A DNA stretch of 64,000 nt from Oscillospiraceae bacterium (GCA_015065075.1 SVRA01000001.1:12234-76233), one strand, 5' to 3'; positions 14,544-46,971 are shown, numbered from the stretch's first letter. The notes: generated by a model from the sequence alone, not told the origin. Translations and numbers: made by a program.

Positions 14544-14645
14544 TCAAATAAAGGGGCGGATTTGCAAAGACTTTACTGTTGCGGACTCCGCCCTATTTAA
14601 ACAAAATATTATCAAAACAAACCGACATTTCACAAAGGATCTCCA

Positions 14646-15185: not shown

Positions 15186-15195
15186 CCCATAAAAC

Positions 15196-15229
15196 CAAAA
15201 ACACGGAAGCCTGAACTTCCGTGTTTTTA
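15196..15229. terminator. bidirectional rho-independent terminator between convergent genes
   Basis: aaaaacacggaag-cctgaa-cttccgtgttttt, with an A-tract on one side and a T-tract on the other. Confidence 0.75.
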
Positions 15230-15230
15230 A

Positions 15231-23121: not shown

Positions 23122-24954
23122 ATGAAAATACAAAAGCTTTACCCCGAATGTAAGGACTACCTTTGGGGAGGAAACAAACTAAAAGAAATCTACGGCAAGG
23201 AGACCGAAAAAACACCCTGTGCGGAGAGCTGGGAGCTGTCATTTCACAAGGACGGTATGACAAAGCTCTCGGACGGTAAAACTCTTGCACAGACGGCAAC
23301 GGACGCCGACCTCGGCGAGCACGTAAAGGACTTTTCCTTCTTTCCCGTGCTTATAAAATTCATCGATGCCAAGCAGGACCTTTCGGTTCAGGTGCACCCC
23401 TCGGACGAATATGCGCTGAAGAATGAAAATTCCTTCGGCAAAACTGAAATGTGGTACATCGTCGAAGCAGATCAGGGAGCTGGCATCTATCTCGGATTCC
23501 GCGAAAGCGTCACAAAGGAAGAATATGAAAAAGCCATTGCTGAAAAGAGACTTACCGACCTGCTCAACTTCTATGAGGTCAAAGCAGGAGAGTGCTATTT
23601 CATTCCCTCGGGAACGATCCACGCAATCGGCAAGGGTTGTCTGATCTGCGAGATACAGCAGAACAGTAACCTCACCTACCGCGTCTATGACTACGGCAGA
23701 AAGGACGCAAACGGCAACGAACGAGAGCTTCACGTCGAAAAGGCGCTCCGTGTCACAAATCTTGACAAATTCGAAAGGCTTTCACTCGGCGGCGACCTGC
23801 TTGGAGTCAGCAAGTATTTTAACGTGCGCAAAATATCCGTGAAAAACGAGATCTTCTATACAAACGAAAAGACCTTTGCATGCATCTGTTGTGTAAAGGG
23901 AGAAGGCGAGATCGACGGACAGAAAATAACCGTCGGAGACAGCTATTTTATCCCCGCAAACTACGGAAAATATACACTCAAAGGAGAAATGGAGATCATT
24001 ATGACTGAAATTCGCAAGTATTACATCGGAATCGACCTCGGAGGCACGTTCATCAAGGGTGGAATTATCGACGACGAGGGCAAAATAATCGTCAACGATA
24101 AGGTTCCTACCGAGAGCGCGGGCGGCTCCGAAACTGTTTTGAAGAATATCGCAAGCCTTTGCAAGTCCTTGCTCAAAAAGGCAAATATGACCGCAAACGA
24201 CGTAGAGGGCATCGGTATGGGTGTTCCGGGAATGATCGATAGCGAGCAAGGAGAGGTCATCTACTCCAACAATCTCGGTTGGGAGGATTTCTCTATCTCG
24301 AAGGAGCTCGAGCAGCTCGTCGGACTCCCCGTAAGGATCGCAAACGACGCTAACGTTGCCGCACTTGGAGAGACCAAGTTTGGCTGTGGCAAGGACTACA
24401 ACAATACCGTTATGCTCACGCTCGGCACGGGTGTCGGCGGCGGAATAATCATAAACGGAAAGCTCTTTGAGGGTAACCGTTCGGCAGGCGCGGAGCTTGG
24501 CCACGCGGTGATCGTTGCGGGCGGCGAGCAGTGCACCTGCGGCCGTCGCGGATGCCTTGAGACCTATGCTTCGGCAACCGCGTTGATCCGTGACACAAAG
24601 CGCGCTATGCTTGCTAATAAGGACAGTAAAATGTGGGAGATCGGAGATATAGAAAATGTCAACGGCAAGACACCGTTCGACTACTATGACGTCGACGAGA
24701 GTGCAAGAGGTGTCGTTGACAACTATATCGAAATGCTCGGTGCGGGAATTGCCAATATTGCCAATATGTTCAGACCCGAGGCAGTTATCCTCGGCGGCGG
24801 TGTCTGCAAGCAGGGAGATTCTCTGATCAAGCCCATCCAGGCAGTGCTTGACCGAGACATTTACGCGGGTACTAAGGGCCCGCAGGTCAAGGTAGTCACT
24901 GCAATGCTTGAAAACGACGCAGGAATTATGGGTGCCGCGGCATTGTGGATGTAA
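23122..24954 (+). CDS. fusion protein: class I mannose-6-phosphate isomerase (N-terminal) + ROK family sugar kinase (C-terminal)
   Basis: 610 aa. N-terminal half: SWELS, QVHPSD, TEMWY and HAIG (ManA type I). C-terminal half: YYIGIDLGGTFIKGG, GAELGH and the Zn motif CTCGRRGCLETYAS (ROK glucokinase-like). Confidence 0.88.
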   Translation: MKIQKLYPECKDYLWGGNKLKEIYGKETEKTPCAESWELSFHKDGMTKLSDGKTLAQTATDADLGEHVKDFSFFPVLIKFIDAKQDLSVQVHPSDEYALKNENSFGKTEMWYIVEADQGAGIYLGFRESVTKEEYEKAIAEKRLTDLLNFYEVKAGECYFIPSGTIHAIGKGCLICEIQQNSNLTYRVYDYGRKDANGNERELHVEKALRVTNLDKFERLSLGGDLLGVSKYFNVRKISVKNEIFYTNEKTFACICCVKGEGEIDGQKITVGDSYFIPANYGKYTLKGEMEIIMTEIRKYYIGIDLGGTFIKGGIIDDEGKIIVNDKVPTESAGGSETVLKNIASLCKSLLKKANMTANDVEGIGMGVPGMIDSEQGEVIYSNNLGWEDFSISKELEQLVGLPVRIANDANVAALGETKFGCGKDYNNTVMLTLGTGVGGGIIINGKLFEGNRSAGAELGHAVIVAGGEQCTCGRRGCLETYASATALIRDTKRAMLANKDSKMWEIGDIENVNGKTPFDYYDVDESARGVVDNYIEMLGAGIANIANMFRPEAVILGGGVCKQGDSLIKPIQAVLDRDIYAGTKGPQVKVVTAMLENDAGIMGAAALWM

Positions 24955-25057: not shown

Positions 25058-25086
25058 TTGACAAATCTTTCTTCAAGAGTTATAAT
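25058..25086 (+). promoter_or_regulatory. perfect consensus sigma-70 promoter heading the nine-gene accessory operon
   Basis: TTGACA, a 17-nt spacer, then TATAAT. The leader to the ATG at 25192 is about 100 nt. Confidence 0.6.
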
Positions 25087-25191
25087 TAATCCATCTGTAC
25101 CCAGAGGGTAACCTCGGGATCAAAATATATGCAATATTAGGTCGGACTTTCGGCTCTGAAAAATCCGATCTCGTAATAGAATGGAGATAAA

Positions 25192-26739
25192 ATGACGTTC
25201 ACAATCTTTTCACTCGTATCAATAATAGCAATTGCCTTCAGCGTGGGCAAGGGCGCGTATAACGGACATCGCAGAGGAAGTACGAAAGCATTCGTTTCTC
25301 TTTTGTGTGTTATTTTCTCGCTTTGCATAGGAGCTCTCCTTTCTTCGCGCGTTTATGCTTCTTCGGTAGGTAATGCGGTAATATCGCTGCTGCAATCAAA
25401 TGAATCTATCGGTTCCTTGCTTGGAAGCATTGGACGGCTTGATGCTGTAGTGAGTGCGATCGTAGCTATGATAGTATCTCCGATAATATTTTTGATCGTG
25501 TTTTTGATCCTGAGGCTGATATGCCACATCGTCATGTCGATCGTTTATAAAAAGGCCCTTCAAGGTGTCGATAAGACCGAGTACCGCGTTGGAGAGAATG
25601 ACGGCTGGTATAAGCGCAACGATAAAAAAATAGGCGCCGTTGTGGGAGGCATAACGGGATTTCTTACCGTGCTGATACTGTTTTCACCTATAATAGGTAC
25701 GCTTAAGGCGGTCGATTCGGTTACAACTATGATATACGGCGACAGAAGGGGAGCTGTACGAGAGCAGGAAAATGATGATCAGGCAGACGCTCGCAGCGCC
25801 GACTACTCAGAGGAGGGTAGCTCAAAGAGCGCGATCGACATCGTGTCCGATTATGCCAACGACTTTGCAGGCACTGTAATGTATTATTGCGGAGGCAAAG
25901 CTATATATGATATGAGCGCCAGGGCAGAGATCGACGGACATACGGTAATATTGACACAGGAGATCGAGTCGGTTTCAAATATAATGCAGGATCTCTCAGA
26001 GGTCGCCCCCGCACTTACTGACATCGGCAGCTTTAGCACCGAGCACGTAGAAAAGCTTGAAAATATATGCGTGGCGTTAGACGATTCTTATTTTTTGAGT
26101 CTGTTGTCTTCATCCGTAGTATCCTCAGCGTCGCAGAGTTGGGTTATGAGAGAGGATTTTATAGGTATACCAAGACCTGATTTCAACTATTCGATATCTT
26201 CGTTTTGTGACAGTATCCTCTCGGTTTTGGCTACCACGACGCCTGATACGGTCAGCTCGGATCTTTCAACGTTCATGCGTGTATGCGACATAATAATGAA
26301 TTCAGGGCTTCTCCAAACCGACGGGGATTATATGGCTATAATGGCGATGATGGAGGACGGCAGCTTTTTGAACGATCTTATCGGTGAATTGGAAAAGAAT
26401 CCAAGGACCGCTCATTTGGTAGATTCACTTCACCTGTTTGCTATGAATTCCTTGGTCAATACCCTTAAGTTTGACGGATATGACGTTGCGGAGTATTACG
26501 GATTGATGGAAGACATCGCGGAGCAGTTCAACCGTATGAACGGTCAGACCCACGAGAAGAAGGTTGAGGACCTTGCTAATTATACGGTGGAATATTTGCA
26601 GGATTACGGCGTTGATATTCCCACAGAGGTGGCAAAGGTCGTTGCGGACGCTATGCTGACCGATATACCTAATTCGGACGGATACATTACCGCCGAACAA
26701 ATGCAGGAATTTTTCGATAAATATTATCAAGGAAACTGA
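25192..26739 (+). CDS. CvpA-like polytopic membrane protein with large C-terminal helical domain of unknown function
   Basis: 515 aa. The N-terminal roughly 170 aa hold four TM helices arranged like the CvpA/colicin V production family. The remaining roughly 330 aa are soluble with no recognised motif. Confidence 0.6.
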   Translation: MTFTIFSLVSIIAIAFSVGKGAYNGHRRGSTKAFVSLLCVIFSLCIGALLSSRVYASSVGNAVISLLQSNESIGSLLGSIGRLDAVVSAIVAMIVSPIIFLIVFLILRLICHIVMSIVYKKALQGVDKTEYRVGENDGWYKRNDKKIGAVVGGITGFLTVLILFSPIIGTLKAVDSVTTMIYGDRRGAVREQENDDQADARSADYSEEGSSKSAIDIVSDYANDFAGTVMYYCGGKAIYDMSARAEIDGHTVILTQEIESVSNIMQDLSEVAPALTDIGSFSTEHVEKLENICVALDDSYFLSLLSSSVVSSASQSWVMREDFIGIPRPDFNYSISSFCDSILSVLATTTPDTVSSDLSTFMRVCDIIMNSGLLQTDGDYMAIMAMMEDGSFLNDLIGELEKNPRTAHLVDSLHLFAMNSLVNTLKFDGYDVAEYYGLMEDIAEQFNRMNGQTHEKKVEDLANYTVEYLQDYGVDIPTEVAKVVADAMLTDIPNSDGYITAEQMQEFFDKYYQGN

Positions 26740-26772
26740 TCAAATTAAAATCAGTTGTTTTGGAGAGATCAT

Positions 26773-27474
26773 ATGTTTGATACCATACTCAAAGACTTGT
26801 TCGAGATATTGCTGTGCCTTATAAGCATAGCTATATATGTTTTTGCCGTGGGCTCGGTGTTGCCTTCGTGGCTCTTGCGCTTAAGATGTTCCGTGCAGGA
26901 CAGAGGTCTTAATAAATATACGTATCCGAGCGGTAGAGGAATACTTTATGAACCGCACCCAACGTTGAGAAAATACGTAAGCTCGTATATACTCTTTGTT
27001 GACAACGGGGTGAAATACATAAGGTGTAAGGCCACCGACGGTGTTGAACGGATATCGTATTCCGTGGCCGTGTTTGACAGACACGGCAAGGTGATAGAGG
27101 TGCTTAAGACCACTGATGTCATAGGGCCCGCGGGTTGCACAAGGCGCGTTGCTTTGCCCAAGGAGACCTCGTACGTAACGCTTATGCTTGATGCGGTCAA
27201 TGAAAAAAAGATAGATAGCGCTACACAACTGACGCTTGACAAGAAAAAGGGAATAGCTTTTGGCGGACTTGTCGTCGTGCTTACGGTCATAGAAGCGTTT
27301 ATAATAAGAGCGATGATGCTTAAGGCGGTAAATCTCGTTAGAGTGTATCTGATGGGAGATTCGGCATTGGAAATAAGCGGAGCATTCGTATTTGTTGCGG
27401 CGGTGGTAATAAGTGCCGTTGGATTGGGCGCTATGTTCCTCAAAAAAAGAAAAGGCGGTCTTAAGATAAAATGA
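26773..27474 (+). CDS. hypothetical membrane protein (N-terminal TM, beta-rich middle domain, two C-terminal TM helices)
   Basis: The ORF track starts at TTG 26755, but the ATG at 26773 has RBS ggagag. The middle domain resembles that of the next gene. Confidence 0.6.
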   Translation: MFDTILKDLFEILLCLISIAIYVFAVGSVLPSWLLRLRCSVQDRGLNKYTYPSGRGILYEPHPTLRKYVSSYILFVDNGVKYIRCKATDGVERISYSVAVFDRHGKVIEVLKTTDVIGPAGCTRRVALPKETSYVTLMLDAVNEKKIDSATQLTLDKKKGIAFGGLVVVLTVIEAFIIRAMMLKAVNLVRVYLMGDSALEISGAFVFVAAVVISAVGLGAMFLKKRKGGLKIK

Positions 27475-27998
27475 GTGAAATAGATAAGATCACGGTAAAG
27501 GGAATTTACAAATATCCGCAAGCGGATGGATTTGTCAGTGTCAAGCAATTTATGTTCGTTTACAGAGAAGGTGTCAAGCACCTGATTTTGAGATGCTCGA
27601 ACGATACTGAAACTGTGTTGAGAACCGTCAGCTTCGTGCTTACGGAGCTTGACCGCGACGGCGCGGTGATAAGGGATCGCCGACTGTCATATGACGATAT
27701 AAACGCCGAGGCGGGAGCGATGTTTTCGTCGAGCAAGGGAATACCCTTGTCGGACGAATGCGTTGATTTCAGGATCCACTTCGTAAGGGCTAAGTCGGAT
27801 AAATATATTTATAAGGTCACGGGAAAAAGAGCGTATGCATATTATTTTCCCAAGAAAACCGAACGCAGATCGAAAATTTTTGATTTTGGATTTTCGGCAA
27901 GCCGATTTGATATGTCGCAGTTCAAGCCGACGGCGACTTTGATGGTAGGAGCATTGCTGCTGCTCATCACAGCATTGACCGTTATATCTCTTCTTTGA
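27471..27998 (+). CDS. hypothetical tail-anchored membrane protein, paralogous domain to the preceding gene
   Basis: 175 aa. Overlaps the upstream stop by 4 nt. C-terminal TM helix ATLMVGALLLLITALTVISLL. Confidence 0.6.
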   Translation: MSEIDKITVKGIYKYPQADGFVSVKQFMFVYREGVKHLILRCSNDTETVLRTVSFVLTELDRDGAVIRDRRLSYDDINAEAGAMFSSSKGIPLSDECVDFRIHFVRAKSDKYIYKVTGKRAYAYYFPKKTERRSKIFDFGFSASRFDMSQFKPTATLMVGALLLLITALTVISLL

Positions 27999-28052
27999 TA
28001 GGTCAAGATTTTCAGCGTGGTAAACAAACCTTATTTTACTTTGGAGAAAACG

Positions 28053-31000
28053 ATGTTCAAATATAACAGTATGATCTCAAGCATTAAGGACGACGACAAG
28101 GTGAGGATACTCACCGATGTTATGTCCTTGTCAGACGGAGAGAGAGTGCGTCTGGGGATCCCGGGATTTGCCGTTCTCAATATGCGACGTATGCTAAAGG
28201 ACGGAAAATATCCTTCGCCTCAGGCGTTGGCTCATTCATGGGACAATAAGCTTATATACGAGCTGTCGGGGGAGGTCGCGCTTTCCGCTGCAAGCTCGGC
28301 ATCAAGCGTGATATTAACACCGGGTGCAAAGGTGAAGCTATCTCCCTACAGAAACGAAATGTCGGAGGATATATATCTTTCACGGTCGCTTGCGACCGAG
28401 TTCGCGCGCGGGGTAAAGTACGCGGGCTCTGCGGCGGCTGTGTCGGGATATTATCTGTCGGATACTGACGTCGAGTGGATGGATGCCTCGCCTTCAAGGG
28501 CAGTCTTGCACGAGTTTTTGATAGAGCCGTTCAAGCGCACTCTTATTGACGGACAGGCGCCTGCGGTAATTACCGATAGACGTATTCTTGCAAATGAATA
28601 TTCAAACGAAAATGCATATTTATCGGACGAGAAAATGGGTAACGTGCCTAGCGGTACTTGCGTAGTAGCAAAGCGCGTTTCTGCGGAAGACACCGTGCCG
28701 TTCCTCGTAAATGGAGGAATATGCCTTAAGGGCTCGCAATCAGCCCTTGAAAACGCTCTTAAAACCTACTATAAGCTTCAAAAGAAGCAGGAGTCGGGTG
28801 AGGTCACTATGGGCGAGGTTGAAGCCGAGATAAAAGCGGGCAGAGCGATCTCCCCCGAGCTTATTGACGCTGCTCTTGAAAGATTATTCACTTTCCTGCT
28901 TAAATCGGATGCGGAGAAGGGCAAAAGGCTCCTTCCCGATCAAAAGGAACAGCTTGCGTTGCGCGCGACAAGAAGCTCCGTGGTTCTTTTGAAGAACGAA
29001 GGCGCAATGCTTCCCTTGAATATAAAAAACGTATCCTCGGTCGCTCTGATAAGCGGTATAGCGGATGAAAGCGGTCTTCTTGACAGATGTGAGGCACAGC
29101 TTTTAGCTAACGGAGTCGGTAAGGTAGAAAAGGCAAGGGGGTATGATTTTACTAAGGACGTCGCGACAAGCGATGACGATTGCCTTGAGGCACTTTCGGC
29201 AGTCGGCACGTGCGATCTGACGATCTTGTTCGTGGGACACGGCGAAAAGCGAGGAAACGATATTTCCTTATCGCATAAAGTATCTTTGCCCGCAAATCAG
29301 CTTGAATTGGCAGATAGGCTAATTCCTCATGCCAAAAAGGTCATCGTGGTTTTGGAAACCGGATATGGTGTTGATATGGCGTTTGCGGAGCCTTTCTGTG
29401 CGGTTATGCTGGCACCCTTTGGAGTGAGAAACGACGCTTCCGTGATAATTGATACGCTGCTTGGCAAGTCCGAGCCCTTGGGCCGATTGCCGTATACGCT
29501 TTATTCCGATATTGACGGATATTCAGAGAAGCATTTGTCGTATCGCGATAAATACGGCGTTAAATCGGGTAGATTCGTGGGATACAGATATTATACAACT
29601 GCGGGTCTTCAGGAAAAATATCCGTTCGGACACGGGCTTTCATATACGAAATTCGCTTATTCAAAGCTTGAGGTGAGCGGCAATACGGTCAGCTTCACGG
29701 TTACTAATACGGGTAAGCGTGCAGGCAGAGAGGTCGCCCAGATATACGTGGGATCGAAGGATTCTCGATTGATACGACCTGCTCGTGAGCTGTGCGGATA
29801 CGCCATTGTCGACCTTAACGTCAAGGAAAGCAAGCGTGTCAGTGTAGAAATTGAGCTTCCTGCGGTATTCGACGAGAACAGTAACAGCATGATAGTTGAA
29901 AAGGGAACGTACACCGTTTACGTGGGTTCGTCCTCAACCGATATAAAGCTGAGTACTAAAATTCACGGTGGAAGTGAAACCGTAAGCGCAGGATCGGAAG
30001 ATAAGCTTTACGAGTATCTTCAGACCGAATCAAACATTATAGGTGACAAATATACTTTAGAGGCAGGTTACAAACTTATGAAGAGATCCATAAAAAATAT
30101 AGTATGCGGAATAGGAGCGAGCGTCCTGGCGATAGCTCTCGGTGTATATAACGCATTAACGTCGTCTGCGACGTTTTTGGGAGTGCTTACCGCGATACTT
30201 GCGGTAACGGGAATAATTTTCTTTATCGTTGACGCGGTTGAGAAGAACAAGGCATATGCTAAAGAGCGCGAAATGATAGCCAAGGAAAATCAGAAGCACT
30301 TTGAAGACGCTGAAAAGCTTGAGGAATTCTCTGCGGAAAATATGTTCAGAACCGAATTTGACGCAGTGTCGGAAAATCAGAACGACACGCAACAGGTTAC
30401 CGTAAAGGAGCACAAGAGCTACGACGAGTCGCTCAAATACGTAGACAAAAAGCTGGATTTCGCCCGTGCGACCAAGGAGTTCAAGGTTTTTGCGCTTGAG
30501 AGAGGGCTTATGCTTGACGATGAAGTGGTGAAGGGCATTTTCGCGTCTGTTTCCGCTTCGAGAATGTTGGTATTCAAGGATATGAGCTCGGAGGATTTCA
30601 AGAGCTTGATATCGGCGCTCTCCGAATATTTCGGAACGAAGACCTACATTGATAAGGTTGATCCTTCGTATGTTAACGAGGAAAGCGCCCTTTTCGCAGT
30701 AGATGAAGAGGGACACCGTGTCAAGAAGAATATGACTTATGCTATCGAAAGCGCCTTGAACGTCAAGGAAAAGCTGCATATAGCCGCGCTCGACGGTGTT
30801 AAATCAGAGGATATGATGGTGTACTTTGCTCCTTACGTTAAGCATGCGAAGAATCCGTTTGGATATACCTCGGTGGTCGCGCATAACGAGCGTAATAAGG
30901 AAACGGCGTACTATATACCCAAGAATATATGGTTTGCGATAAACCTTGCTATTGGTGAATCCTACGATATGATCCCCGACTTTCTCTCTGAGATAGCAAC

Positions 31001-31610
31001 GGTAAATCGTATCTCGATCTCAAAGAGCACACCCTCGAATAAACACTCGGATTTTGGCAATTTCTATTATTATCAGCTGGACTACATAAGTGAGCGTGCC
31101 GTAAACCGTTACGTTATAGGTGAGGAGCTCTGGAAGAAGATAGACTCTCTTGAAAAGCGCGTAAAGAGCATTGCGCCCGAATTTGCGATAAACAACAAGA
31201 TGTGTTTGGCATTTGAAAAGAGTGCGGCAGCGCTGATGGCAGCAGGGCTCGAAATAAAGCAGAGCGTTGATATGGCTCTGGCGGTAAAGATCATGCCCTC
31301 GATTCTGTTCGTGACAAGCGGCAAGAAGACCGAGTCGGGAGACTCGATCGTTGAGATATTTGATTCGGTTTTCGGTGACGACGATATGATGAAGTGCGCC
31401 GAGGTGATCAAGGATGCCGAAACCTATAAAAAAGACAGCTATTCACAGCCCGAGACAGTTCAGAATTCGGATATCGAATACGAGGTCAAAACGACAGAAG
31501 ATGATAAGGCAGACGTAGCCGAGGCCGTTGACTTGGCAGAGGATACCGCAGACGTAAATGAAGATCAATCGCCCTCTGATAGCGAAGATTCAAATAAAGA
31601 TCAGGATTAA
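28053..31610 (+). CDS. multidomain protein: divergent glycoside hydrolase family 3-like region + Fn3-like domain + TM hairpin + degenerate McrB-like AAA+ domain + acidic tail
   Basis: The ORF runs from GTG 28017, but the ATG at 28053 has RBS ggaga.
- GH3 hallmarks: LGIPGF, SVVLLKNEGAMLPL, LGRLPYT, GHGLSYTKF and an Fn3-like REVAQIYVG...RELCGYAIVDL.
- Two TM helices at 30099-30239.
- The C-terminal region aligns with the downstream ATPases but has Walker A DMSSEDFK and Walker B LDGVK. Confidence 0.8.
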   Translation: MFKYNSMISSIKDDDKVRILTDVMSLSDGERVRLGIPGFAVLNMRRMLKDGKYPSPQALAHSWDNKLIYELSGEVALSAASSASSVILTPGAKVKLSPYRNEMSEDIYLSRSLATEFARGVKYAGSAAAVSGYYLSDTDVEWMDASPSRAVLHEFLIEPFKRTLIDGQAPAVITDRRILANEYSNENAYLSDEKMGNVPSGTCVVAKRVSAEDTVPFLVNGGICLKGSQSALENALKTYYKLQKKQESGEVTMGEVEAEIKAGRAISPELIDAALERLFTFLLKSDAEKGKRLLPDQKEQLALRATRSSVVLLKNEGAMLPLNIKNVSSVALISGIADESGLLDRCEAQLLANGVGKVEKARGYDFTKDVATSDDDCLEALSAVGTCDLTILFVGHGEKRGNDISLSHKVSLPANQLELADRLIPHAKKVIVVLETGYGVDMAFAEPFCAVMLAPFGVRNDASVIIDTLLGKSEPLGRLPYTLYSDIDGYSEKHLSYRDKYGVKSGRFVGYRYYTTAGLQEKYPFGHGLSYTKFAYSKLEVSGNTVSFTVTNTGKRAGREVAQIYVGSKDSRLIRPARELCGYAIVDLNVKESKRVSVEIELPAVFDENSNSMIVEKGTYTVYVGSSSTDIKLSTKIHGGSETVSAGSEDKLYEYLQTESNIIGDKYTLEAGYKLMKRSIKNIVCGIGASVLAIALGVYNALTSSATFLGVLTAILAVTGIIFFIVDAVEKNKAYAKEREMIAKENQKHFEDAEKLEEFSAENMFRTEFDAVSENQNDTQQVTVKEHKSYDESLKYVDKKLDFARATKEFKVFALERGLMLDDEVVKGIFASVSASRMLVFKDMSSEDFKSLISALSEYFGTKTYIDKVDPSYVNEESALFAVDEEGHRVKKNMTYAIESALNVKEKLHIAALDGVKSEDMMVYFAPYVKHAKNPFGYTSVVAHNERNKETAYYIPKNIWFAINLAIGESYDMIPDFLSEIATVNRISISKSTPSNKHSDFGNFYYYQLDYISERAVNRYVIGEELWKKIDSLEKRVKSIAPEFAINNKMCLAFEKSAAALMAAGLEIKQSVDMALAVKIMPSILFVTSGKKTESGDSIVEIFDSVFGDDDMMKCAEVIKDAETYKKDSYSQPETVQNSDIEYEVKTTEDDKADVAEAVDLAEDTADVNEDQSPSDSEDSNKDQD

Positions 31611-31621
31611 GGAGATCGCAA

Positions 31622-32944
31622 ATGCTAAACTTTACAATGGCCAACGCGTTTGGCTCAATTCCAGCCGCATTTATGTCGCTTACTGATCTTTTGTCTTCTC
31701 CCGGTGCGATCTTTACTTATCTCTTCGTAGTGCTAGCGGCAATAGCGGTCATAGTTATCGCCATTATCATTAAGGAAAGAGGTCAGTCGGGCGCGGTAGA
31801 GTATAAGATTTCTTATGACGGCGCGGCAGCCCCCAAAACGAAGAAAGAGGAGCCCGAGGAGACCGGAGAGCGCTTCTATATGCTGAGTACGATAGACGGC
31901 AATGAGAAGAGTTATATGAGAACGAGCTACGATAAAGGAGTAACGCTCAAGGAGCTGTGCGACAATTTCAGGAACTACTCTGCAAGTAATCTGGGACTGT
32001 ATTACGATATCGAGGATATCAGAAGATTTATTGCAGGCATGTCGGTATCACATATATTGATACTTCAGGGTATGTCGGGAACAGGTAAGACCTCGCTTGC
32101 GTACGCTTTCGGCTCGTTTATGGATAATTCGTCAACGGTAATACCCGTACAGCCTATGTGGAAGGAAAGGACTGACCTTATAGGATACTATAACGAGTTT
32201 ACGAAGAAATTTAACGAAACGCTCCTGCTTGAGAAGATGTACGAGGCGAATTACAGTGAGGATATATACATATCGGTGCTCGACGAGATGAATATTGCGA
32301 GAGTAGAGTACTATTTTGCTGAATTTTTGTCACTTTTGGAGCTTCCGAACCCCGACGACAGATATCTTGAGGTAGTGCCTGACAAATGGCCTACAGACCC
32401 GAAGAATCTGATCGAGGGAAGAATAAAGCTGCCGAGCAATATGTGGTTTATCGGAACGGCAAACAACGACGACTCGACGTTTGCGATATCGGATAAGGTA
32501 TATGACAGAGCGATGGTGTTGAATCTTGACACGAGAAGCGAGAGATTTGCGGCACCGTTGACCGAGAAGATGCATATATCGGCGAAGCAGTTCAAGGAGC
32601 TAGTAGATGAAGCGATAAAGGAATATGATATCAGCAGAAGAAACAGAGCAAGACTGGAGCAGCTGGACAAATATCTTGTCGATCATTTCCATATCACGTT
32701 CGGAAACCGAATAATGAAGCAGATAAGAACGTATATTCCGGTGTATATAAGCTGCGGAGGCGACGAGCTAGATGCACTTGACGACATATTGTCGAAGAAG
32801 GTAATGAGAAAGCTTGAAACGCAGAACCCGATATATCTGAGAAACTCAGCCGAGGGACTTATATCGTTCCTTGACGAATTGTTCGGTCAGGATAAGATGA
32901 CCTTGTGCAAGGACTTTATCCACAGACTCCAGAGAAACGCCTAA
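31622..32944 (+). CDS. membrane-anchored McrB-like AAA+ NTPase (paralog 1)
   Basis: 440 aa.
- One N-terminal TM helix.
- Walker A GMSGTGKT (32069-32092).
- Walker B VLDEMN (32276-32293), followed by IARVEYYFAEFLSLLE, as in the McrB segment DEINRANLSKVFGE.
- FIGTANNDDS, an NxxD-type motif as in McrB NTAD.
- No DNA-binding N-terminal domain. Confidence 0.8.
   Translation: MLNFTMANAFGSIPAAFMSLTDLLSSPGAIFTYLFVVLAAIAVIVIAIIIKERGQSGAVEYKISYDGAAAPKTKKEEPEETGERFYMLSTIDGNEKSYMRTSYDKGVTLKELCDNFRNYSASNLGLYYDIEDIRRFIAGMSVSHILILQGMSGTGKTSLAYAFGSFMDNSSTVIPVQPMWKERTDLIGYYNEFTKKFNETLLLEKMYEANYSEDIYISVLDEMNIARVEYYFAEFLSLLELPNPDDRYLEVVPDKWPTDPKNLIEGRIKLPSNMWFIGTANNDDSTFAISDKVYDRAMVLNLDTRSERFAAPLTEKMHISAKQFKELVDEAIKEYDISRRNRARLEQLDKYLVDHFHITFGNRIMKQIRTYIPVYISCGGDELDALDDILSKKVMRKLETQNPIYLRNSAEGLISFLDELFGQDKMTLCKDFIHRLQRNA
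31829..32944 (+). repeat. 1.1 kb direct repeat, copy A (ATPase module)
   Basis: Near-identical to 34921-36036 at a constant offset of 3092 bp. The encoded 371 aa are identical. The differences I found (31831, 31837, 31912, 32932) are all synonymous. Confidence 0.95.
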
Positions 32945-32959
32945 AAAGGAAATTACCGT

Positions 32960-34660
32960 ATGAACGAGTTAGATACATATTATCGAGCACTGCTCGAGTT
33001 GCGAAACACAACGAATAGTGTCCGACAGTGTGCGATGCTAAACGCGGCTATCGCCGCGGCTGACGCCGAGGATGACAAAATAGTCGTAACGCGCGCAAAG
33101 TGCACCGTCGACGAGGATTGGATATGCGCTATTGAGGAAGGTCTTATACATATCGAAAAGGCCATCAAGGAGGAGCGTCAGTTTATACGCTCCAACGGCG
33201 AGGTCATTCCGATAGAGAAGGTGAAGAACGTGTCCAAGGAATCTGTACAGCACCTGGCAAGACACGGAAATCTCATCACTCACGTGCCCGAGGACGAAAA
33301 CGATATCGTGCCCGATAAGCTCTTTTCGGTAGAGCGACTCAACGATTATACCGTGTACGAAAACCGTTTTCTGTATATGCTGCTGTGCTATCTTCGCGAT
33401 TTTGTCACGCTGAGATATAATAAGATCCTGGATCTTACAAATAAATACGACGGCGCGCTTACTATGAATAAGACCGTATCGTCCGCAAAGAGAAAGATGA
33501 CATTCGTCTTAGATCTCAAGGAAGAGCGCCGCGACGACAGATACCTGAGCAACAACAATAAGGCAAAGCCGCTTATCGACCGAATAGACATCATTCTTAA
33601 GACTATATTGGCATTTTTGGCGACTCCGCTTATGGAATACGCGTCAAAGGTGGCTATGCTCAAGCCCCCGATAACCAAGACCAACGTATTGAAGATGGAT
33701 AACAACTTCAAGGGCGCGGTCAAGCTTTACGATTTTATAATAGCTTACGACAAGGTGGGCTATTCCGTTGAAAACGAGGCGCTCACCATCTCTCCCTTTA
33801 ACGATAACCTTGCGGCAGAGCTTGCCGATTGTAGCGCTTTGATATCTTTTATAACCTACGAGTACGGACTCGGTATAACCTCCGAGCTCAAGGACCGTTA
33901 TATAGAAAATGAAAGCCGCCGCAAGCTAGAGGAGCTCAGAAAAAAGACCGAGCAGCTCGAGGCGCTCTCAAGAAGACTCAAGAAGTCCGACGTGAGCGTT
34001 GAGGAATATATACTTGCTTTAGAAAAGCACGTGCGCGCCCTTGACGCCGAGTGCGCAAAGATCGAGGCGCTCAGAAATGAAATATCGGCTATGAAGGCCG
34101 CCGAGCGTGAGCATATCGCCAAGATCGGCGAGCTGACCGAGGCGGTAGATCTTGTCAAGCAGGAGCTGAACGAGGAAAAGCACAATCACTTGGCGGAAAA
34201 AGCCCTCCTTCAAAAGCAACATCAGAGCGATATGGATGCTCTTTGCCAAACTCACAGAGATGAGCTCCGCGTCAACAACGAGCGCCATGAAAAAGAGCTT
34301 GAGGAGATCCGCTTGCACATTGGCAAAATGGAAAACGACTTTGCCGCACAGCTTGATCGTGAGAGGGCAGTATCGCAGTCGGTACGCGACGAATTAGCCA
34401 AAAAGACCGAGAAATACGATCAGCTATACGAGAGATTTCTCTTGGCAGAGGCGATCGCGAACGGGGTGCGTGCCCGCCGAGGAGAAGAATTGGGCGATTT
34501 CACCGATAAGGAGAGCTTTGACGAGCTCGAAAAGCAGTACAACGCCTTTCTGCGCTTCTATAAGAAGGAATGGCAAAAGACTAAGAAGAAGATAAGAAAG
34601 AATACGCTCAAGATTGAAAATTTTAAGAAAACGAAAGACGACAGTGACGGTCTTGAATAA
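32960..34660 (+). CDS. coiled-coil protein in the McrC-equivalent position, no recognisable nuclease domain
   Basis: 566 aa. The N-terminal roughly 300 aa are globular, including YTVYENRFLYMLLCYLRDFV. The C-terminal roughly 260 aa are heptad-rich E/K/L/R coiled coil ending in a basic tail, KKEWQKTKKKIRKN. It lies between the two McrB-like genes. Confidence 0.65.
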   Translation: MNELDTYYRALLELRNTTNSVRQCAMLNAAIAAADAEDDKIVVTRAKCTVDEDWICAIEEGLIHIEKAIKEERQFIRSNGEVIPIEKVKNVSKESVQHLARHGNLITHVPEDENDIVPDKLFSVERLNDYTVYENRFLYMLLCYLRDFVTLRYNKILDLTNKYDGALTMNKTVSSAKRKMTFVLDLKEERRDDRYLSNNNKAKPLIDRIDIILKTILAFLATPLMEYASKVAMLKPPITKTNVLKMDNNFKGAVKLYDFIIAYDKVGYSVENEALTISPFNDNLAAELADCSALISFITYEYGLGITSELKDRYIENESRRKLEELRKKTEQLEALSRRLKKSDVSVEEYILALEKHVRALDAECAKIEALRNEISAMKAAEREHIAKIGELTEAVDLVKQELNEEKHNHLAEKALLQKQHQSDMDALCQTHRDELRVNNERHEKELEEIRLHIGKMENDFAAQLDRERAVSQSVRDELAKKTEKYDQLYERFLLAEAIANGVRARRGEELGDFTDKESFDELEKQYNAFLRFYKKEWQKTKKKIRKNTLKIENFKKTKDDSDGLE

Positions 34661-34665
34661 TTGTT

Positions 34666-36036
34666 ATGGGAAATAAAAAGATAGACAAAAAGTGGATATT
34701 TTTGATGATCGCGGTTGCAGTTGCCACGCTTTTGTTGGCATACGCGCTGAGCACGGCAGACCTTAGCTCTATGCTGAACGGTGCAGTGCGCCCACAGCAC
34801 GTCAGGGCGATAATAATATTTATGATCGCGATTCCGATCCTTCTTATCGCGCTGATTGCGGTTATGCTCCTGATGAAGCCTGAGACGAAGACGGTGGTAA
34901 CGCATATGCCCGACGTAGTTGCTCCCAAGACGAAGAAAGAGGAGCCCGAGGAGACCGGAGAGCGCTTCTATATGCTGAGTACGATAGACGGCAATGAGAA
35001 GAGCTATATGAGAACGAGCTACGATAAAGGAGTAACGCTCAAGGAGCTGTGCGACAATTTCAGGAACTACTCTGCAAGTAATCTGGGACTGTATTACGAT
35101 ATCGAGGATATCAGAAGATTTATTGCAGGCATGTCGGTATCACATATATTGATACTTCAGGGTATGTCGGGAACAGGTAAGACCTCGCTTGCGTACGCTT
35201 TCGGCTCGTTTATGGATAATTCGTCAACGGTAATACCCGTACAGCCTATGTGGAAGGAAAGGACTGACCTTATAGGATACTATAACGAGTTTACGAAGAA
35301 ATTTAACGAAACGCTCCTGCTTGAGAAGATGTACGAGGCGAATTACAGTGAGGATATATACATATCGGTGCTCGACGAGATGAATATTGCGAGAGTAGAG
35401 TACTATTTTGCTGAATTTTTGTCACTTTTGGAGCTTCCGAACCCCGACGACAGATATCTTGAGGTAGTGCCTGACAAATGGCCTACAGACCCGAAGAATC
35501 TGATCGAGGGAAGAATAAAGCTGCCGAGCAATATGTGGTTTATCGGAACGGCAAACAACGACGACTCGACGTTTGCGATATCGGATAAGGTATATGACAG
35601 AGCGATGGTGTTGAATCTTGACACGAGAAGCGAGAGATTTGCGGCACCGTTGACCGAGAAGATGCATATATCGGCGAAGCAGTTCAAGGAGCTAGTAGAT
35701 GAAGCGATAAAGGAATATGATATCAGCAGAAGAAACAGAGCAAGACTGGAGCAGCTGGACAAATATCTTGTCGATCATTTCCATATCACGTTCGGAAACC
35801 GAATAATGAAGCAGATAAGAACGTATATTCCGGTGTATATAAGCTGCGGAGGCGACGAGCTAGATGCACTTGACGACATATTGTCGAAGAAGGTAATGAG
35901 AAAGCTTGAAACGCAGAACCCGATATATCTGAGAAACTCAGCCGAGGGACTTATATCGTTCCTTGACGAATTGTTCGGTCAGGATAAGATGACCTTGTGC
36001 AAGGACTTTATCCACAGACTCCAAAGAAACGCCTAA
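34666..36036 (+). CDS. membrane-anchored McrB-like AAA+ NTPase (paralog 2)
   Basis: 456 aa. Unrelated N-terminus with two TM helices, then 371 aa identical to paralog 1. Confidence 0.8.
   Translation: MGNKKIDKKWIFLMIAVAVATLLLAYALSTADLSSMLNGAVRPQHVRAIIIFMIAIPILLIALIAVMLLMKPETKTVVTHMPDVVAPKTKKEEPEETGERFYMLSTIDGNEKSYMRTSYDKGVTLKELCDNFRNYSASNLGLYYDIEDIRRFIAGMSVSHILILQGMSGTGKTSLAYAFGSFMDNSSTVIPVQPMWKERTDLIGYYNEFTKKFNETLLLEKMYEANYSEDIYISVLDEMNIARVEYYFAEFLSLLELPNPDDRYLEVVPDKWPTDPKNLIEGRIKLPSNMWFIGTANNDDSTFAISDKVYDRAMVLNLDTRSERFAAPLTEKMHISAKQFKELVDEAIKEYDISRRNRARLEQLDKYLVDHFHITFGNRIMKQIRTYIPVYISCGGDELDALDDILSKKVMRKLETQNPIYLRNSAEGLISFLDELFGQDKMTLCKDFIHRLQRNA
34921..36036 (+). repeat. 1.1 kb direct repeat, copy B (ATPase module)
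   Basis: See copy A. The repeat ends exactly at the stop codon, and the flanking sequences differ. Confidence 0.95.
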
Positions 36037-36076
36037 AGGGGCAAAACAATAACTATATATAGAGAAGTTTTTAATT

Positions 36077-38833
36077 ATGAACAGATCAAAATTGATTATC
36101 ATACTTAGCGCGGCTATACTTTGTGTAGTGACGGTATTGTGCGTGATGCTGGTGATGATATTTCCGAGCTTGACCGAAAACGTAAACAAGCTGGTGTTTG
36201 AGTCGGAAAGCTGTGAGAGCTATTACGACGGAACCGCTTTAACGGGTACTAAGTGGTCGTTGGTTTCGGGAGAGCTGAAGCCGGGACACACCGCCCAGGT
36301 AACCCTTTCGGGCAGTCAACGCTACGTGGGAACGACACCGAATCTTATGCAGATCGTAATAGTTGATTCCAACGGAAAAGACGTAACGTCACGATACAAT
36401 ATAGAGTGCAAACCGGGAACGCTGACTGTAAAGCCCGCCAATATAACGATCGTCAGTAACTCCAGGGCCAAGATATACGACGGCCAGCCGCTATTTGACG
36501 GTGGGTACATGTTGCTTCCCGAGGACGCGTTGCCGTCGGGGCACGTGTTGGACGTTGAAATAACGGGAAAAATAACCGAAATAGGTGAGACGGCGAATAC
36601 TATATCCCGTGTCGTCGTGTATGATGTTGGCGGAAAAGATATTTCCTTTAATTTCAACATCATTCCCGTTGAGGGACGCCTTGTCGTTTTGGATGAGGAC
36701 GACCCCAGACTCAATCTTGATATCAACAAGGACGGCATGCCCGACTTGAATATAGATTTTGACGGCGACCTGATTCCCGATCTGAATATAGATCTTAACG
36801 GAGATTTTTTATCAGACCTGAACATAGATCTTAACGGCGACCTTCTGGCTGATCTTAATATAGATCTTAACGGAGATATGCTGTCCGATCTTAATATAGA
36901 TCTTAACGGAGACAGATTATCTGATCTTAATATAGATCTCGACGGAGATAAGATTCCCGATTTGAATATAGATCTTGATGGAGATAAGATCCCTGACGTG
37001 AATATAGACGGTGACGGAGATAAGATACCCGACCTGAACATAGATATCGATGGGGATAAGCTTCCCGATGTGAACGTAGATATTGACGGTGACGGTATCC
37101 CGGATATAAACATCGACGGACTTGGCAACGGAAACAGTAATGGCAACGGGAACGGAAACGGAGGCTCGGGCAAACTCGACATCAGCGGAAATATCGGTTC
37201 GGGAGATTTGAACGGAGATGGAAAGAAGACCGTATGTTACAAAGTAACGTCGGACTCCACGGACAGGATATACCTCAAAGTAACTAATTTCGGAAGCTAT
37301 AACGGAAAACAGTGGTCGGCTGCCAAGCAGTACGACGAGCTTATATACGGTTCCTTCTCGGCTTCGTATCTGCCGTCGATAGCGATGCTCAATTCAGGCA
37401 GAATGCCGAGCAACGTATACGTTGAGGTGTTGAACGAGCAGGCGGTAGTGCCGTATTATTCATACGGATTGTTATGGAGTGAAAGCGACATTGCGGTTTC
37501 ATATCAGGATGAAAATTTGGAATTCGTTTGCTTTGGCGGAGGACATAGGGGCTTAACGACGCCTTACGATCTTTACGATTACGAGGAAAGATACAGAAGC
37601 TTTGTTTACGAAAATTATCTTGATATAGACCCTGATACGTTTGGGTATATGCAAAAGATAATCGAAGCAAACGGATTTTCCGCAAGCTCACCCGGTGTGA
37701 TAGAAGCGGTTGCCGAATATATTCAGCAATCCGCAAAATACGATCTCAAATACGACAGATCCCTCGATAAAGAGGACAATATAGTAGTCAAATTCCTTGA
37801 CGAATACAAGACGGGTATATGTCAGCATTATGCAAGCGCAGCGACGCTTTTGTACAGAGCTCTCGGAATACCCGCAAGATACACCGTGGGATTTGTTTGC
37901 GATGCCGTTGCGGGAAAGACCGTAGAGGTCACTGCAATGCAGGCACACGCTTGGGTAGAGGTTTATATAGACGGCTTGGGCTGGATATTCGTTGAAGTAA
38001 CGGGCTCGGACGGATCGGGTGATATTCAGGAAAATCCCAATAAGATCACCGTGACTCCATCAAGCTGCGAAAAGAGATACGACGGACAGCCGCTTGTGGC
38101 AGAAAACGAGATTCAGATGACTCCGGCGATTCTGAATCTGATCAATAATGGATACACCCTCGTTACCGTTGTTTCGGGAGAGAGGACCGACCCGGGCAAA
38201 TCCGAGAGCTTTATCGCGGATATTCGAATATACGATCCTTTTGGCGAGGACGTTACACACGAATTCCAGATCGAGCGCAAGACGGGTGTCGTGCACGTGT
38301 ATATAGGAGAGTTCTACTTCGCGAGTGAAACCGTTTCCAAGGAATACGACGGAACGGCGCTTGAGGGCGATCTGTCTAACCTTGTATATATGGGAGCGGA
38401 CTTCGACGCGACCAATTATACGTATCAAGCAACCCCGTCGATCTTGGCTAACATCAAAAACGTGGGAAGTACCCAAAACTCGTTCAATGTGAAAATATTC
38501 AACGAGAATAACGAAGACGTTACCGATATGTACAAGATCGTAAAGCAGTGGGGATCTCTGGAAATAGAACCGAGGAGCATTACCGTGACTGCGGGAAGCG
38601 CTACGGCGTCTTATACGGGAGAGCCACTCGTTTGTAATGATATCTTCGTTACAAGCGGAATACTGGTTGAAGAAGAATACATATTTGATTACGTTGTTGA
38701 GGGCTCACAGACAGACAGAGGCCGCTCCGACAATATAGTCAAGAGCATTACCATATACGATGCAAATGGTAACGACGTAACCCAGAATTACGCCATAGTC
38801 TTTGAAAAAGGTACGTTGAGAGTAACGAACTAA
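36077..38833 (+). CDS. membrane-anchored transglutaminase-like (Cys protease fold) surface protein with MBG (YGX-type) repeats and an acidic 9-aa repeat array
   Basis: 918 aa.
- N-terminal signal anchor.
- MBG-like modules ending ...YNIECKPGTLTVKP and ...NYAIVFEKGTLRVTN.
- TGase core GICQHYASAATLLYRALGIPARYTVGF...HAWVEVYIDGLGWIFVEVT, with the Cys codon at 37820. Confidence 0.85.
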   Translation: MNRSKLIIILSAAILCVVTVLCVMLVMIFPSLTENVNKLVFESESCESYYDGTALTGTKWSLVSGELKPGHTAQVTLSGSQRYVGTTPNLMQIVIVDSNGKDVTSRYNIECKPGTLTVKPANITIVSNSRAKIYDGQPLFDGGYMLLPEDALPSGHVLDVEITGKITEIGETANTISRVVVYDVGGKDISFNFNIIPVEGRLVVLDEDDPRLNLDINKDGMPDLNIDFDGDLIPDLNIDLNGDFLSDLNIDLNGDLLADLNIDLNGDMLSDLNIDLNGDRLSDLNIDLDGDKIPDLNIDLDGDKIPDVNIDGDGDKIPDLNIDIDGDKLPDVNVDIDGDGIPDINIDGLGNGNSNGNGNGNGGSGKLDISGNIGSGDLNGDGKKTVCYKVTSDSTDRIYLKVTNFGSYNGKQWSAAKQYDELIYGSFSASYLPSIAMLNSGRMPSNVYVEVLNEQAVVPYYSYGLLWSESDIAVSYQDENLEFVCFGGGHRGLTTPYDLYDYEERYRSFVYENYLDIDPDTFGYMQKIIEANGFSASSPGVIEAVAEYIQQSAKYDLKYDRSLDKEDNIVVKFLDEYKTGICQHYASAATLLYRALGIPARYTVGFVCDAVAGKTVEVTAMQAHAWVEVYIDGLGWIFVEVTGSDGSGDIQENPNKITVTPSSCEKRYDGQPLVAENEIQMTPAILNLINNGYTLVTVVSGERTDPGKSESFIADIRIYDPFGEDVTHEFQIERKTGVVHVYIGEFYFASETVSKEYDGTALEGDLSNLVYMGADFDATNYTYQATPSILANIKNVGSTQNSFNVKIFNENNEDVTDMYKIVKQWGSLEIEPRSITVTAGSATASYTGEPLVCNDIFVTSGILVEEEYIFDYVVEGSQTDRGRSDNIVKSITIYDANGNDVTQNYAIVFEKGTLRVTN
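36710..37120 (+). repeat. about 14 tandem 27-bp (9-aa) repeats encoding DLNIDLNGDxLx / DxDGD acidic loops
   Basis: The repeat is visible at both DNA and protein level, for example cttaatatagatcttaacggagat. It is followed by a (GN)n linker at 37121-37165. Confidence 0.9.
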
Positions 38834-38859
38834 CGAAAGTATAGATAGGGCAGGTTTTT

Positions 38860-43854: not shown

Positions 43855-43879
43855 TTCCTTGATCTATTTGAAAATATTT

Positions 43880-43918
43880 AAGAAAGCACCGTGGGCAATT
43901 GGCCTGCGGTGCTTTCTT
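43880..43918 (+). terminator. hairpin terminator closing the operon
   Basis: aagaaagcaccg ... cggtgctttctt, a 12-bp stem. The T-tract is weak. Confidence 0.55.
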
Positions 43919-43975
43919 AAATGGAAAATTTTTAAACCCGCGGTCTCTGTGGTTGCGGAATTTTTTGTAGAAGAG

Positions 43976-46886: not shown

Positions 46887-46971
46887 GTGCGGGTAAAAGG
46901 ACTTGAACCTTCACGAAGTCGCCCCCACTAGAACCTGAATCTAGCGCGTCTGCCAATTCCGCCATACCCGC
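46885..46971 (-). tRNA. tRNA-Leu (anticodon CAG)
   Basis: Reverse complement reads gcgggtatggcggaattggcagacgcgCTAGAttCAGgtTCTAGtgggggcgacttcgtgaaggttcaagtccttttacccgcacca. It has a 7-bp acceptor stem, a long variable arm, a T-loop GGTTCAAGTCC and an encoded CCA. Confidence 0.9.

Follow-up and report, generated by a model that had tools for sequence, protein, structure and literature searches.

What does a glycosidase-like module do on a protein that has no leader peptide and sits in the membrane through a hairpin? The question is raised by a gene at positions 28053 to 31610 (+) of a 64,000-nucleotide stretch of DNA from an Oscillospiraceae bacterium (GCA_015065075.1 SVRA01000001.1:12234-76233), the whole of which we call the window. 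The region 28053-30240, which drew attention to the locus, makes up the first 57% of this open reading frame (ORF), which encodes 1185 amino acids (aa) from its ATG and is the fourth gene of a co-directional cluster. We found that its product joins a three-domain glycoside hydrolase family 3 (GH3) fold without catalytic residues, a hairpin of two transmembrane helices, a degenerate McrB-like AAA+ domain and an acidic tail. With moderate confidence, we propose that this fusion serves a conserved nine-gene, McrBC-derived, envelope-spanning machine as its noncatalytic adaptor or input subunit.

The product of gene 4 is 100% identical to NCBI entry MBE6684064.1, which comes from a Ruminococcaceae/Oscillospiraceae metagenome-assembled genome (MAG) and is annotated as "hypothetical protein"; some homologues elsewhere are named "GH3 C-terminal domain-containing protein". 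Scans with PADLOC and PHROGs returned no match to the fusion. A GGAG sits 8 nt ahead of the ATG at 28053, the encoded N terminus reads MFKYNS, and all of the 55 full-length homologues start with an equivalent M-[LF]-K-[YH] N terminus, so that we take this ATG to be the real start. A GTG at 28017 would give a longer protein in the same frame and was rejected, since the start of the homologues corresponds to the ATG at 28053 instead. The four GH3 C-domain and Fn3-like motifs listed in the initial annotation are all present in this ORF, with VVLLKNEGAMLPL at aa 310-322, LGKSEPLGRLPYT at aa 470-482, GHGLSYTKF at aa 526-534, and REVAQIYVG at aa 559-567. The C-terminal tail (31458-31607, +) is acidic, with 19 Asp or Glu and 3 Lys or Arg in 50 aa, is modeled with low confidence, and is probably disordered.

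By fold and homology, the N-terminal part of the fusion is a GH3 protein of the BglB/Bgl3B type. The α/β-sandwich, or GH3 C-terminal, domain (aa 310-531; 28980-29645, +) and the Fn3-like domain (aa 560-628; 29730-29936, +) match their Pfam families far over the curated cut-offs (Glyco_hydro_3_C, E of 8e-25; Fn3-like, E of 6.5e-16), while the N-terminal barrel (aa 1-300; 28053-28952, +) scores 16.4 bits against a cut-off of 27 bits and was assigned by AlphaFold2 (AF2), Foldseek and alignment as well. A phmmer search of the PDB aligned residues 51-639 of the fusion with Clostridium thermocellum BglB (7ms2) at an E value of 7e-53. The AF2 model of residues 1-640, computed from a 52-sequence alignment, has a mean predicted local distance difference test score (pLDDT) of 91.8 and a predicted template modeling score (pTM) of 0.91, the barrel being modeled at a pLDDT of ∼90 or higher throughout. 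Foldseek matched this model to the GH3 β-glucosidases 9lql/8j9f, 7ms2 and 5wab, with E values of 1e-44 to 1e-40 and a template modeling score (TM) of ∼0.7. The N-terminal 640 residues are thus predicted to keep a complete BglB-type fold made of barrel, α/β sandwich and Fn3-like domain. A comparison with NagZ had been suggested earlier, but the relatives are three-domain β-glucosidases, and no NagZ appeared among the 53 PDB sequence matches from phmmer, the NCBIfam matches or the top 50 Foldseek matches.

The barrel had also been thought to be shortened, but a MAFFT alignment with canonical GH3 enzymes shows that it is remodeled instead. Two deletions precede the position of the canonical KHF motif: the fusion lacks a loop of 16 residues that follows the DGPHGLR position, as well as 4 residues at CGRN. 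A family-specific insertion of ∼17 residues (GxICLxGSxxALExAxxRYxKL) follows the nucleophile strand. Because this insertion offsets the deletions, the GH3 C-terminal domain begins at residue 310 in the fusion, close to residue ∼316 in the canonical relative, and we discarded the idea of a truncated barrel.

The catalytic residues are gone from this otherwise complete fold. We used the reference P0056 for canonical GH3 numbering and scored the family columns over 50 members; the reference residues agree with the literature for Thermotoga neapolitana Bgl3B (D58/D242/E458) and its equivalents in Bifidobacterium adolescentis Bgl3 (D44/D232/E417) (PMC6327262). At the column of the nucleophile D231, the window protein has K207 (28671-28673, +), with VVAKR aligned to the canonical VVSDW, and the family shows Glu in 18 members, Lys in 14, Asp in 6 and other residues in 12. 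The neighboring W232 corresponds to R208, in a variable column. The acid/base E419, the Glu of the SEGxDR loop, has N402 or D403 as its counterpart, depending on the alignment, in a column occupied by Asp in 12 members, Arg in 12, Lys in 9 and other residues in 17. The nucleophile and acid/base columns are therefore unconserved even inside the fusion family.

The residues that contact the sugar have fared no better. The subsite −1 Asp of the DGPHG motif, D44, is replaced by N43 (Asn in 22 members, Tyr in 10, Asp in 5, others in 13), Y199 by R176 in a variable column, and the K152-H153 pair by S131 and G132, with Ser in 36 and Gly in 45 of the 50 members. These last two residues open the family-conserved motif SGYYLSD (aa 131-137; 28443-28463, +), which lies at the canonical KHF position. 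The GYYLSD stretch had been read as the context of the nucleophile, and this placement cannot stand; the initial annotation was right, on the other hand, in failing to confirm KHF and SDW, since both motifs are absent from the alignments. A family-conserved arginine, R100, is two residues out of register with the canonical sugar-binding Arg (R119), and this contact may be the single one at subsite −1 that could survive in the fusion. With no intact catalytic dyad in the alignment (K207; N402/D403), the non-enzymatic reading of the module offered earlier is upheld, and the N-terminal module and its whole family are, judged by these columns, a pseudo-glycosidase.

The C-terminal domain of the fusion is dead in a similar way. 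It spans aa 789-1134 (30417-31454, +) and is a degenerate paralogue of the two membrane-anchored McrB-like GTPases encoded in the same cluster, as recognized by BLASTP, hhalign, AF2 and Foldseek. BLASTP aligned it with the product of the neighboring gene at 31622-32944 with an E value of 4e-8, and hhalign aligned its family with the neighboring AAA_5 family over 326 columns, with 99.6% probability and an E value of 7.6e-25. The Walker A position reads DMSSEDFKS in the fusion against GMSGTGKTS in the neighbor, Walker B reads LDGVK against LDEMN, with loss of the Glu, and the NxxD position reads IGES against NNDD. The P-loop GxxGxGK[ST] was found in none of the 19 aligned family members. The label "pseudo-AAA+" given to this domain earlier was thus well chosen. 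As Walker A, the Walker B Glu and NxxD are all lost, the domain is predicted to be unable to hydrolyze GTP by the canonical P-loop route. Its AF2 model (pLDDT of 84.6) retrieved McrB first in Foldseek (6hz4_E, E of 1.6e-6), followed by dynein, BchI, NorQ and MoxR, all of AAA_5 type.

These properties suggest how an adaptor or input subunit could work. The dead AAA+ domain would dock onto or into a ring that the two active GTPases build with the coiled-coil protein resembling the McrC N terminus, in the way that the McrB hexamer of McrBC is plugged by McrC. Where McrB has its N-terminal target-recognition domain, the fusion would have the GH3-like module for binding or input in the cytoplasm, and this module would present a remodeled and constrained pocket or surface to a cytoplasmic partner that is probably not a GH3-type glycoside. 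Binding of the partner could then modulate GTPase activity, and the membrane anchors, along with the coiled coil, might transmit GTP-dependent changes to two giant extracellular proteins with transglutaminase cores.

Several observations weigh against this proposal. All of the evidence is computational: domain identities, loss of motifs, conservation of the hairpin, paralogy and synteny were each established in this way, and we infer only from homology and synteny that a ring is assembled, that a partner is bound and that the transglutaminase-core proteins are coupled to the system. A sequence profile of the C-terminal domain matched nothing among PDB sequences, McrB included, so the link to McrB rests on the neighboring paralogue and on fold similarity, and the TM of the Foldseek matches to this domain is modest (0.3 to 0.45). 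On the side of the GH3-like module, the nucleophile column holds an acidic residue (Glu or Asp) in 24 of the 50 members, and some family members may have a noncanonical activity, though the window protein has Lys there.

If the module is not an enzyme, does it still bind something? Mean pairwise identity within the family is 0.325 for the barrel and 0.305 for the pseudo-AAA domain, and 0.385 and 0.43 for the GH3 C-terminal and Fn3-like domains, respectively, so that the barrel is constrained to a degree comparable with the rest of the protein. At 46 positions, the family is at least 80% conserved and yet unlike the canonical consensus. Among these, K93, Y99, R100, G132, Y134, D175, C224 and L225 lie on or beside the former active-site motifs, and further ones, Y484 for example, stand where canonical GH3 enzymes have a different, invariant residue. 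The GH3-like domain therefore appears to be under continued constraint rather than decaying, and the pattern fits a remodeled, still-used pocket or interface and does not fit retention of GH3-type sugar binding.

The same pattern could be read in favor of a glycan or muropeptide sensor, as the initial annotation proposed, in which the dead GH3 pocket still binds sugar and feeds the AAA+ machinery. Noncatalytic lectins with glycosidase folds are known from other glycoside hydrolase families, and here the complete fold is kept at high model confidence, the constraint on the barrel is comparable with that on the other domains, and the loops of the former pocket have gained conserved residues, among them the SGYY motif and R100, a near neighbor of the canonical Arg that binds sugar. 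We nevertheless consider such a sensor unlikely. The hydrogen-bonding residues of subsite −1 are replaced at the equivalents of D44, K152-H153, Y199, D231-W232 and E419, the catalytic columns are unconserved within the family, the nearest relatives are β-glucosidases and not NagZ, and no gene for sugar metabolism or cell wall recycling is conserved in the cluster across homologous loci. Since most of the scored sugar-contact and catalytic positions are replaced, binding of a glycan or muropeptide lacks positive evidence.

Alternatively, the module could sense no ligand at all and be a pure scaffold, that is, a spacer, a putative oligomerization domain or a docking platform, perhaps recruited because BglB-type GH3 enzymes are stable multidomain oligomers; the closest GH3 enzymes are indeed present with several chains in their crystal entries. 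Free drift of the catalytic and sugar-binding columns agrees with this, as does the fact that the Fn3-like and GH3 C-terminal domains are more conserved than the barrel. Among the C-domain matches described below, we found the pseudo-AAA domain with no other N-terminal module, which looks more like a fixed part than like a swappable sensor. A mere spacer, however, would have no need for family-specific conserved residues clustered on the former active-site loops, and we regard this explanation, too, as improbable. That the fusion is an active, membrane-tethered cytoplasmic glycosidase with noncanonical catalytic residues we find very hard to believe, even though two of its domains, GH3 C-terminal and Fn3-like, exceed the Pfam thresholds and about half of the homologues have an acidic residue at the nucleophile column. 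In the window protein, that column holds Lys and the acid/base column, itself unconserved, holds N/D; the K-H pair and the D44 equivalent have disappeared from essentially all members, and the NCBIfam equivalog scores are 5 to 17 times under their cut-offs.

Both large parts of the fusion are predicted to lie inside the cell. A 19-residue hydropathy scan located only two membrane-grade segments, aa 683-702 and 706-726 (30099-30230, +), which form a hairpin with an uncharged loop of ∼3 residues, and nearly all homologues have two segments in this position, with four in two divergent members. The first of them is preceded by a 680-residue domain whose N terminus is not hydrophobic: the highest 12-residue Kyte-Doolittle mean at the N terminus is at most 1.49 over the family and 0.72 in the window protein, and none of the 55 homologues has a hydrophobic segment in its first 36 residues. 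Charges could be scored in 20 members, whose 15 residues ahead of the first helix contain 60 Lys or Arg against 34 Asp or Glu and whose loop between the helices measures ∼3 to 5 residues and is uncharged by the selection used. The hairpin of the window protein itself has 8 Lys or Arg in its flanks and none in its loop. In the AAA_5 paralogues, the N-terminal anchors lead into a Lys/Arg-rich exit and then the GTPase domain, and the closest GH3 relatives of the fusion are leaderless BglB-type enzymes.

A topology with both termini inside and both large parts cytoplasmic is therefore a strong prediction, given the lack of a leader, the nearly constant number of transmembrane segments, the Lys/Arg-rich flanks, and the paralogy to nucleotide-dependent GTPases. 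In these respects the initial annotation, which had described a leaderless protein with a single hairpin as its only hydrophobic stretch and had placed the two domains on the same, presumably cytoplasmic face, is supported. The reverse orientation, with both domains outside and the fusion displayed at the surface as a glycan binder, is permitted by the even number of transmembrane segments and agrees with the extracellular location of the transglutaminase-core partners encoded downstream, but it is scarcely plausible for a family in which no member has a signal peptide before the 680-residue N-terminal domain, the hairpin is Lys/Arg enriched in its flanks and not in its loop, the C-terminal domain is paralogous to nucleoside triphosphate-dependent GTPases anchored on the cytoplasmic side, and the closest GH3 relatives are leaderless.

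The cluster that would supply the partners of this adaptor consists of nine co-directional genes over ∼18.7 kb (25058-43958), with measured gaps of 5 to 54 nt. Its ends are marked by a promoter-like and a terminator-like site, both recognized as consensus matches. The former is a sigma-70-like TTGACA-17-TATAAT sequence with 12 of 12 matches (25058-25086, +), ∼106 nt upstream of gene 1, whose function as a promoter is presumed; the latter is a hairpin followed by a T run, past the last gene (43938-43958, +). An Rfam scan found no riboswitch upstream of the operon and returned two tRNAs only, located elsewhere.

Three membrane protein genes precede the fusion. Gene 1 (25192-26739, +) encodes 515 aa with four transmembrane segments, a weak CvpA/Colicin_V-like match and a large soluble C-terminal part. 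Gene 2 (26755-27474, +), whose start codon is uncertain, encodes ∼235 aa with three hydrophobic segments, and gene 3 (27471-27998, +) encodes 175 aa with one C-terminal transmembrane segment and thus a tail anchor; neither product matched a family.

The fusion is followed by the McrBC-like part of the cluster. Gene 5 (31622-32944, +) encodes a McrB-like AAA_5 GTPase with one N-terminal transmembrane anchor. Its Walker A (GMSGTGKT), Walker B (LDEMN) and NxxD (NNDD) motifs are intact in an alignment with Escherichia coli McrB, where NNDD matches NTAD. Gene 7 (34666-36036, +) encodes a second McrB-like AAA_5 GTPase, with two N-terminal transmembrane segments. Between them, gene 6 (32960-34660, +) encodes a soluble protein with a domain resembling the McrC N terminus (DUF2357) and then a long C-terminal coiled coil of ∼250 residues. 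The DUF2357 domain scores 21.5 bits, just below the Pfam cut-off of 23.3 bits, and PF09823 is among the precomputed hits of many homologues. We detected no nuclease domain in this product either with Pfam or with a family profile searched against PDB sequences, which gave only matches of coiled-coil type. The family of gene 6 has more than 1700 homologues at ∼50% identity and is larger and more conserved than the GH3 fusions first retrieved. A McrB-like GTPase with intact motifs beside a DUF2357 protein marks the operon as a predicted McrBC type.

The last two genes of the cluster encode the giant partners, both with an N-terminal transmembrane anchor and a transglutaminase core. The product of gene 8 (36077-38833, +) has 918 aa and shows the Cys and His motifs of the core, and that of gene 9 (38860-43854, +) has 1664 aa. 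Within gene 8, at 36740-37089 of the window, 36-nt units in 9.7 tandem copies encode Asp-rich 12-residue repeats (DLNIDLNGDxLx), which, in the extracellular part of the protein, may form a calcium-binding or spacer region.

Several other genes surround the cluster. Directly upstream, the gene at 23122-24954 encodes 610 aa in which the catalytic and cupin domains of a type I phosphomannose isomerase are fused to a sugar kinase of the ROK family. Downstream, the large ORFs 44050-46470 and 47493-51347 begin with lipoprotein-like leaders (LASCG and FASCG) and continue with long Asp/Thr- or Glu/Thr-rich low-complexity regions; neither has a Pfam match, and no counterparts were seen within the 10-kb flanks of homologous loci. 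The two tRNA genes (46888-46971 and 47002-47083, minus strand) lie between these two lipoprotein-like genes.

In each of the seven other loci that reach far enough, genes for AAA_5, the DUF2357 coiled-coil protein, a second AAA_5 and the giant transglutaminase-core proteins come after the fusion gene. The order fusion, AAA_5, DUF2357 coiled-coil protein, AAA_5, transglutaminase protein, giant protein is complete in the homologous loci L001, L003, L005, L011 and L012, and L002 has the same order as far as its contig runs. This synteny holds at only 30 to 50% identity of the fusion proteins or of the DUF2357 partners. The three upstream membrane genes are common to five of the six homologous loci: a gene for ∼500 aa occupies the position of gene 1 in L001, L005, L011 and L012, and the positions of genes 2 and 3 are likewise conserved. 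Our scan of a genome collection, made with a 5-sequence alignment, retrieved five close loci, all from Clostridia/Eubacteriales MAGs, so that the phyletic range is poorly sampled.

A broader view was obtained with the C-terminal domain, which phmmer matched, among 1.84 billion representative proteins, to 521 clusters at an E value of 1e-3 or less and to 318 at 1e-10 or less, the representatives being defined at 50% identity. The best 150 of these 521 matches are nearly all 1050 to 1370 aa long and have the domain at approximately residues 780 to 1120. Shorter matches still contain the GH3 C-terminal and Fn3-like domains or start inside the Fn3-like/hairpin region, and most of them look like N-terminally truncated gene calls. 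The 470-aa protein P0302 might be a genuinely GH3-less variant, and a 981-aa match that includes a ThiI_fer domain appears to result from merged gene calls. The fusion architecture is therefore shared by a large and stable family, as yet without a name, of rumen and gut Clostridia.

Genes 5 and 7, which encode the two active GTPases of the cluster as direct repeats ∼3 kb apart that flank the DUF2357 gene, share their 3′ ends over ∼1.1 kb (∼1107 nt) with 2 mismatches in the window, while the 5′ regions that encode the anchors differ. The AAA_5 pairs of three other genomes show the same near-identity, with 0, 0 and 1 mismatches (14157-15458 and 17630-19024 in L001; 13764-15119 and 17188-18585 in L003; 13435-14748 and 16658-17989 in L005). 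Between genomes, the AAA_5 proteins differ by 27 to 40% in spite of this near-identity within each genome, which points to ongoing gene conversion, that is, concerted evolution of the copies. An assembly artifact was considered as the source of the identical copies and discarded, since four independent assemblies agree.

More tentatively than for the fusion itself, and with some doubt, we propose that the operon at 25192-43854 encodes an undescribed class of McrBC-derived, membrane-spanning machine with the dead GH3/McrB fusion as its input. Two GTPases with different membrane anchors would be held identical by gene conversion, a third, dead paralogue would bear a dead β-glucosidase fold as the cytoplasmic input module, and the remaining cytoplasmic component would be a McrC-like coiled-coil protein that lacks a nuclease. 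Together, these components might then drive or gate the giant extracellular surface proteins, which resemble transglutaminases or proteases.

If the adaptor reading of the fusion is correct, a whole three-domain glycosidase fold can serve noncatalytic work, wired through a membrane hairpin to a degenerate McrB-type motor. Two pseudoenzymes, one derived from a glycosidase and one from a GTPase, are paired in a single polypeptide here, which makes the protein a clean natural example of such a pairing. With ∼500 clusters of the C-terminal domain at 50% identity and more than 1700 DUF2357 partners, the fusion is a fixed component of a gene cluster that is widespread in rumen and gut Clostridia, and its genes should be left out of β-glucosidase counts in surveys of carbohydrate-active enzymes (CAZymes) in metagenomes from these habitats. 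The range of McrBC-derived systems would also be extended to a membrane-embedded form with extracellular transglutaminase-like partners. Should the machine work as proposed, a restriction-type motor would have been repurposed for envelope or surface biology, or for surface-level defense, in gut Clostridia.

How does this fusion compare with known GH3 proteins? It shares the order of barrel, sandwich and Fn3-like domain and the leaderless N-terminal helix with cytoplasmic three-domain β-glucosidases such as BglB (7MS2), PSTG1 (8J9F/9LQL), the B. adolescentis enzyme (5WAB) and T. neapolitana Bgl3B (2X40), at 23 to 30% sequence identity. It differs from them in the replaced nucleophile, acid/base residue, K-H pair, subsite −1 Asp and Tyr/Trp, in the indels of its barrel, and in the attached transmembrane hairpin and AAA+-like domain. 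NagZ is, like the module, a cytoplasmic member of the GH3 superfamily, but it has no C-terminal sandwich and Fn3-like domains, which the fusion possesses, and the fusion for its part has no catalytic Asp. Secreted or periplasmic GH3 enzymes of the BglX type have a signal peptide, unlike the fusion.

A defense role for the whole system may also be considered because the closest annotated relatives of the AAA_5 GTPases are plasmid-encoded pairs in defense-like operons and the candidate system PDC-M26A. The plasmid ATPases are 35 to 39% identical to the window proteins in the GTPase domain, with E values of 1e-49 to 2e-57, and the matches comprise 278 records from several phyla, 159 of them from Klebsiella. 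We examined two plasmid loci with an AAA_5 and DUF2357 pair, one in Rhodoferax antarcticus (L013; NZ_CP019242, 47271-51460) and one in Deinococcus sp. AJ005 (L014; p96k, 30371-34899). In both, an ATPase of ∼790 aa is preceded by another large AAA protein and followed by the DUF2357 protein, but neither of the two has a GH3-like or transglutaminase gene annotated. When seven cluster and downstream proteins were scanned with PADLOC, only the two AAA_5 proteins matched, and partially so, to PDC-M26A (E of 4e-46); the fusion, the DUF2357 protein, the transglutaminase proteins and an 806-aa lipoprotein gave no match, and the scan assigned no defined defense system.

Similar in composition are the CoCoNuT and CoCoPALM systems, which combine a McrB-like GTPase and DUF2357 with long coiled coils and McrC homologues without an active nuclease, CoCoPALM having transmembrane segments in addition (Bell et al., eLife 2024, PMC11090510). 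The GTPases of those clades have a shortened NxD motif, whereas those of the window keep NxxD (NNDD), and their coiled coil is usually on the GTPase, whereas in our cluster it is on the McrC-like protein only. Neither that survey of McrBC diversity nor two of its supplementary files mentions GH3 or transglutaminase partners, and literature searches for McrB with transglutaminase or DUF2357, PDC-M26, CoCoPALM, GH3 pseudoenzymes, and McrB-like proteins with glycoside hydrolases returned no description of this architecture.

The fusion can also be set beside E. coli McrB (6HZ4, 6UT6). Both have an AAA_5 fold with a large accessory module N-terminal to the AAA+ domain, and in both systems a DUF2357 (McrC N-terminal) partner is encoded in the same cluster. 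The accessory module of the fusion, however, is a glycosidase fold and not a DNA-binding domain, all three McrB paralogues of the window are membrane anchored, and the McrC-like partner carries a coiled coil, with no nuclease detected by sequence searches. Pseudo-glycosidases and McrBC-derived systems are each of a known kind; the system as a whole possibly represents a new class.

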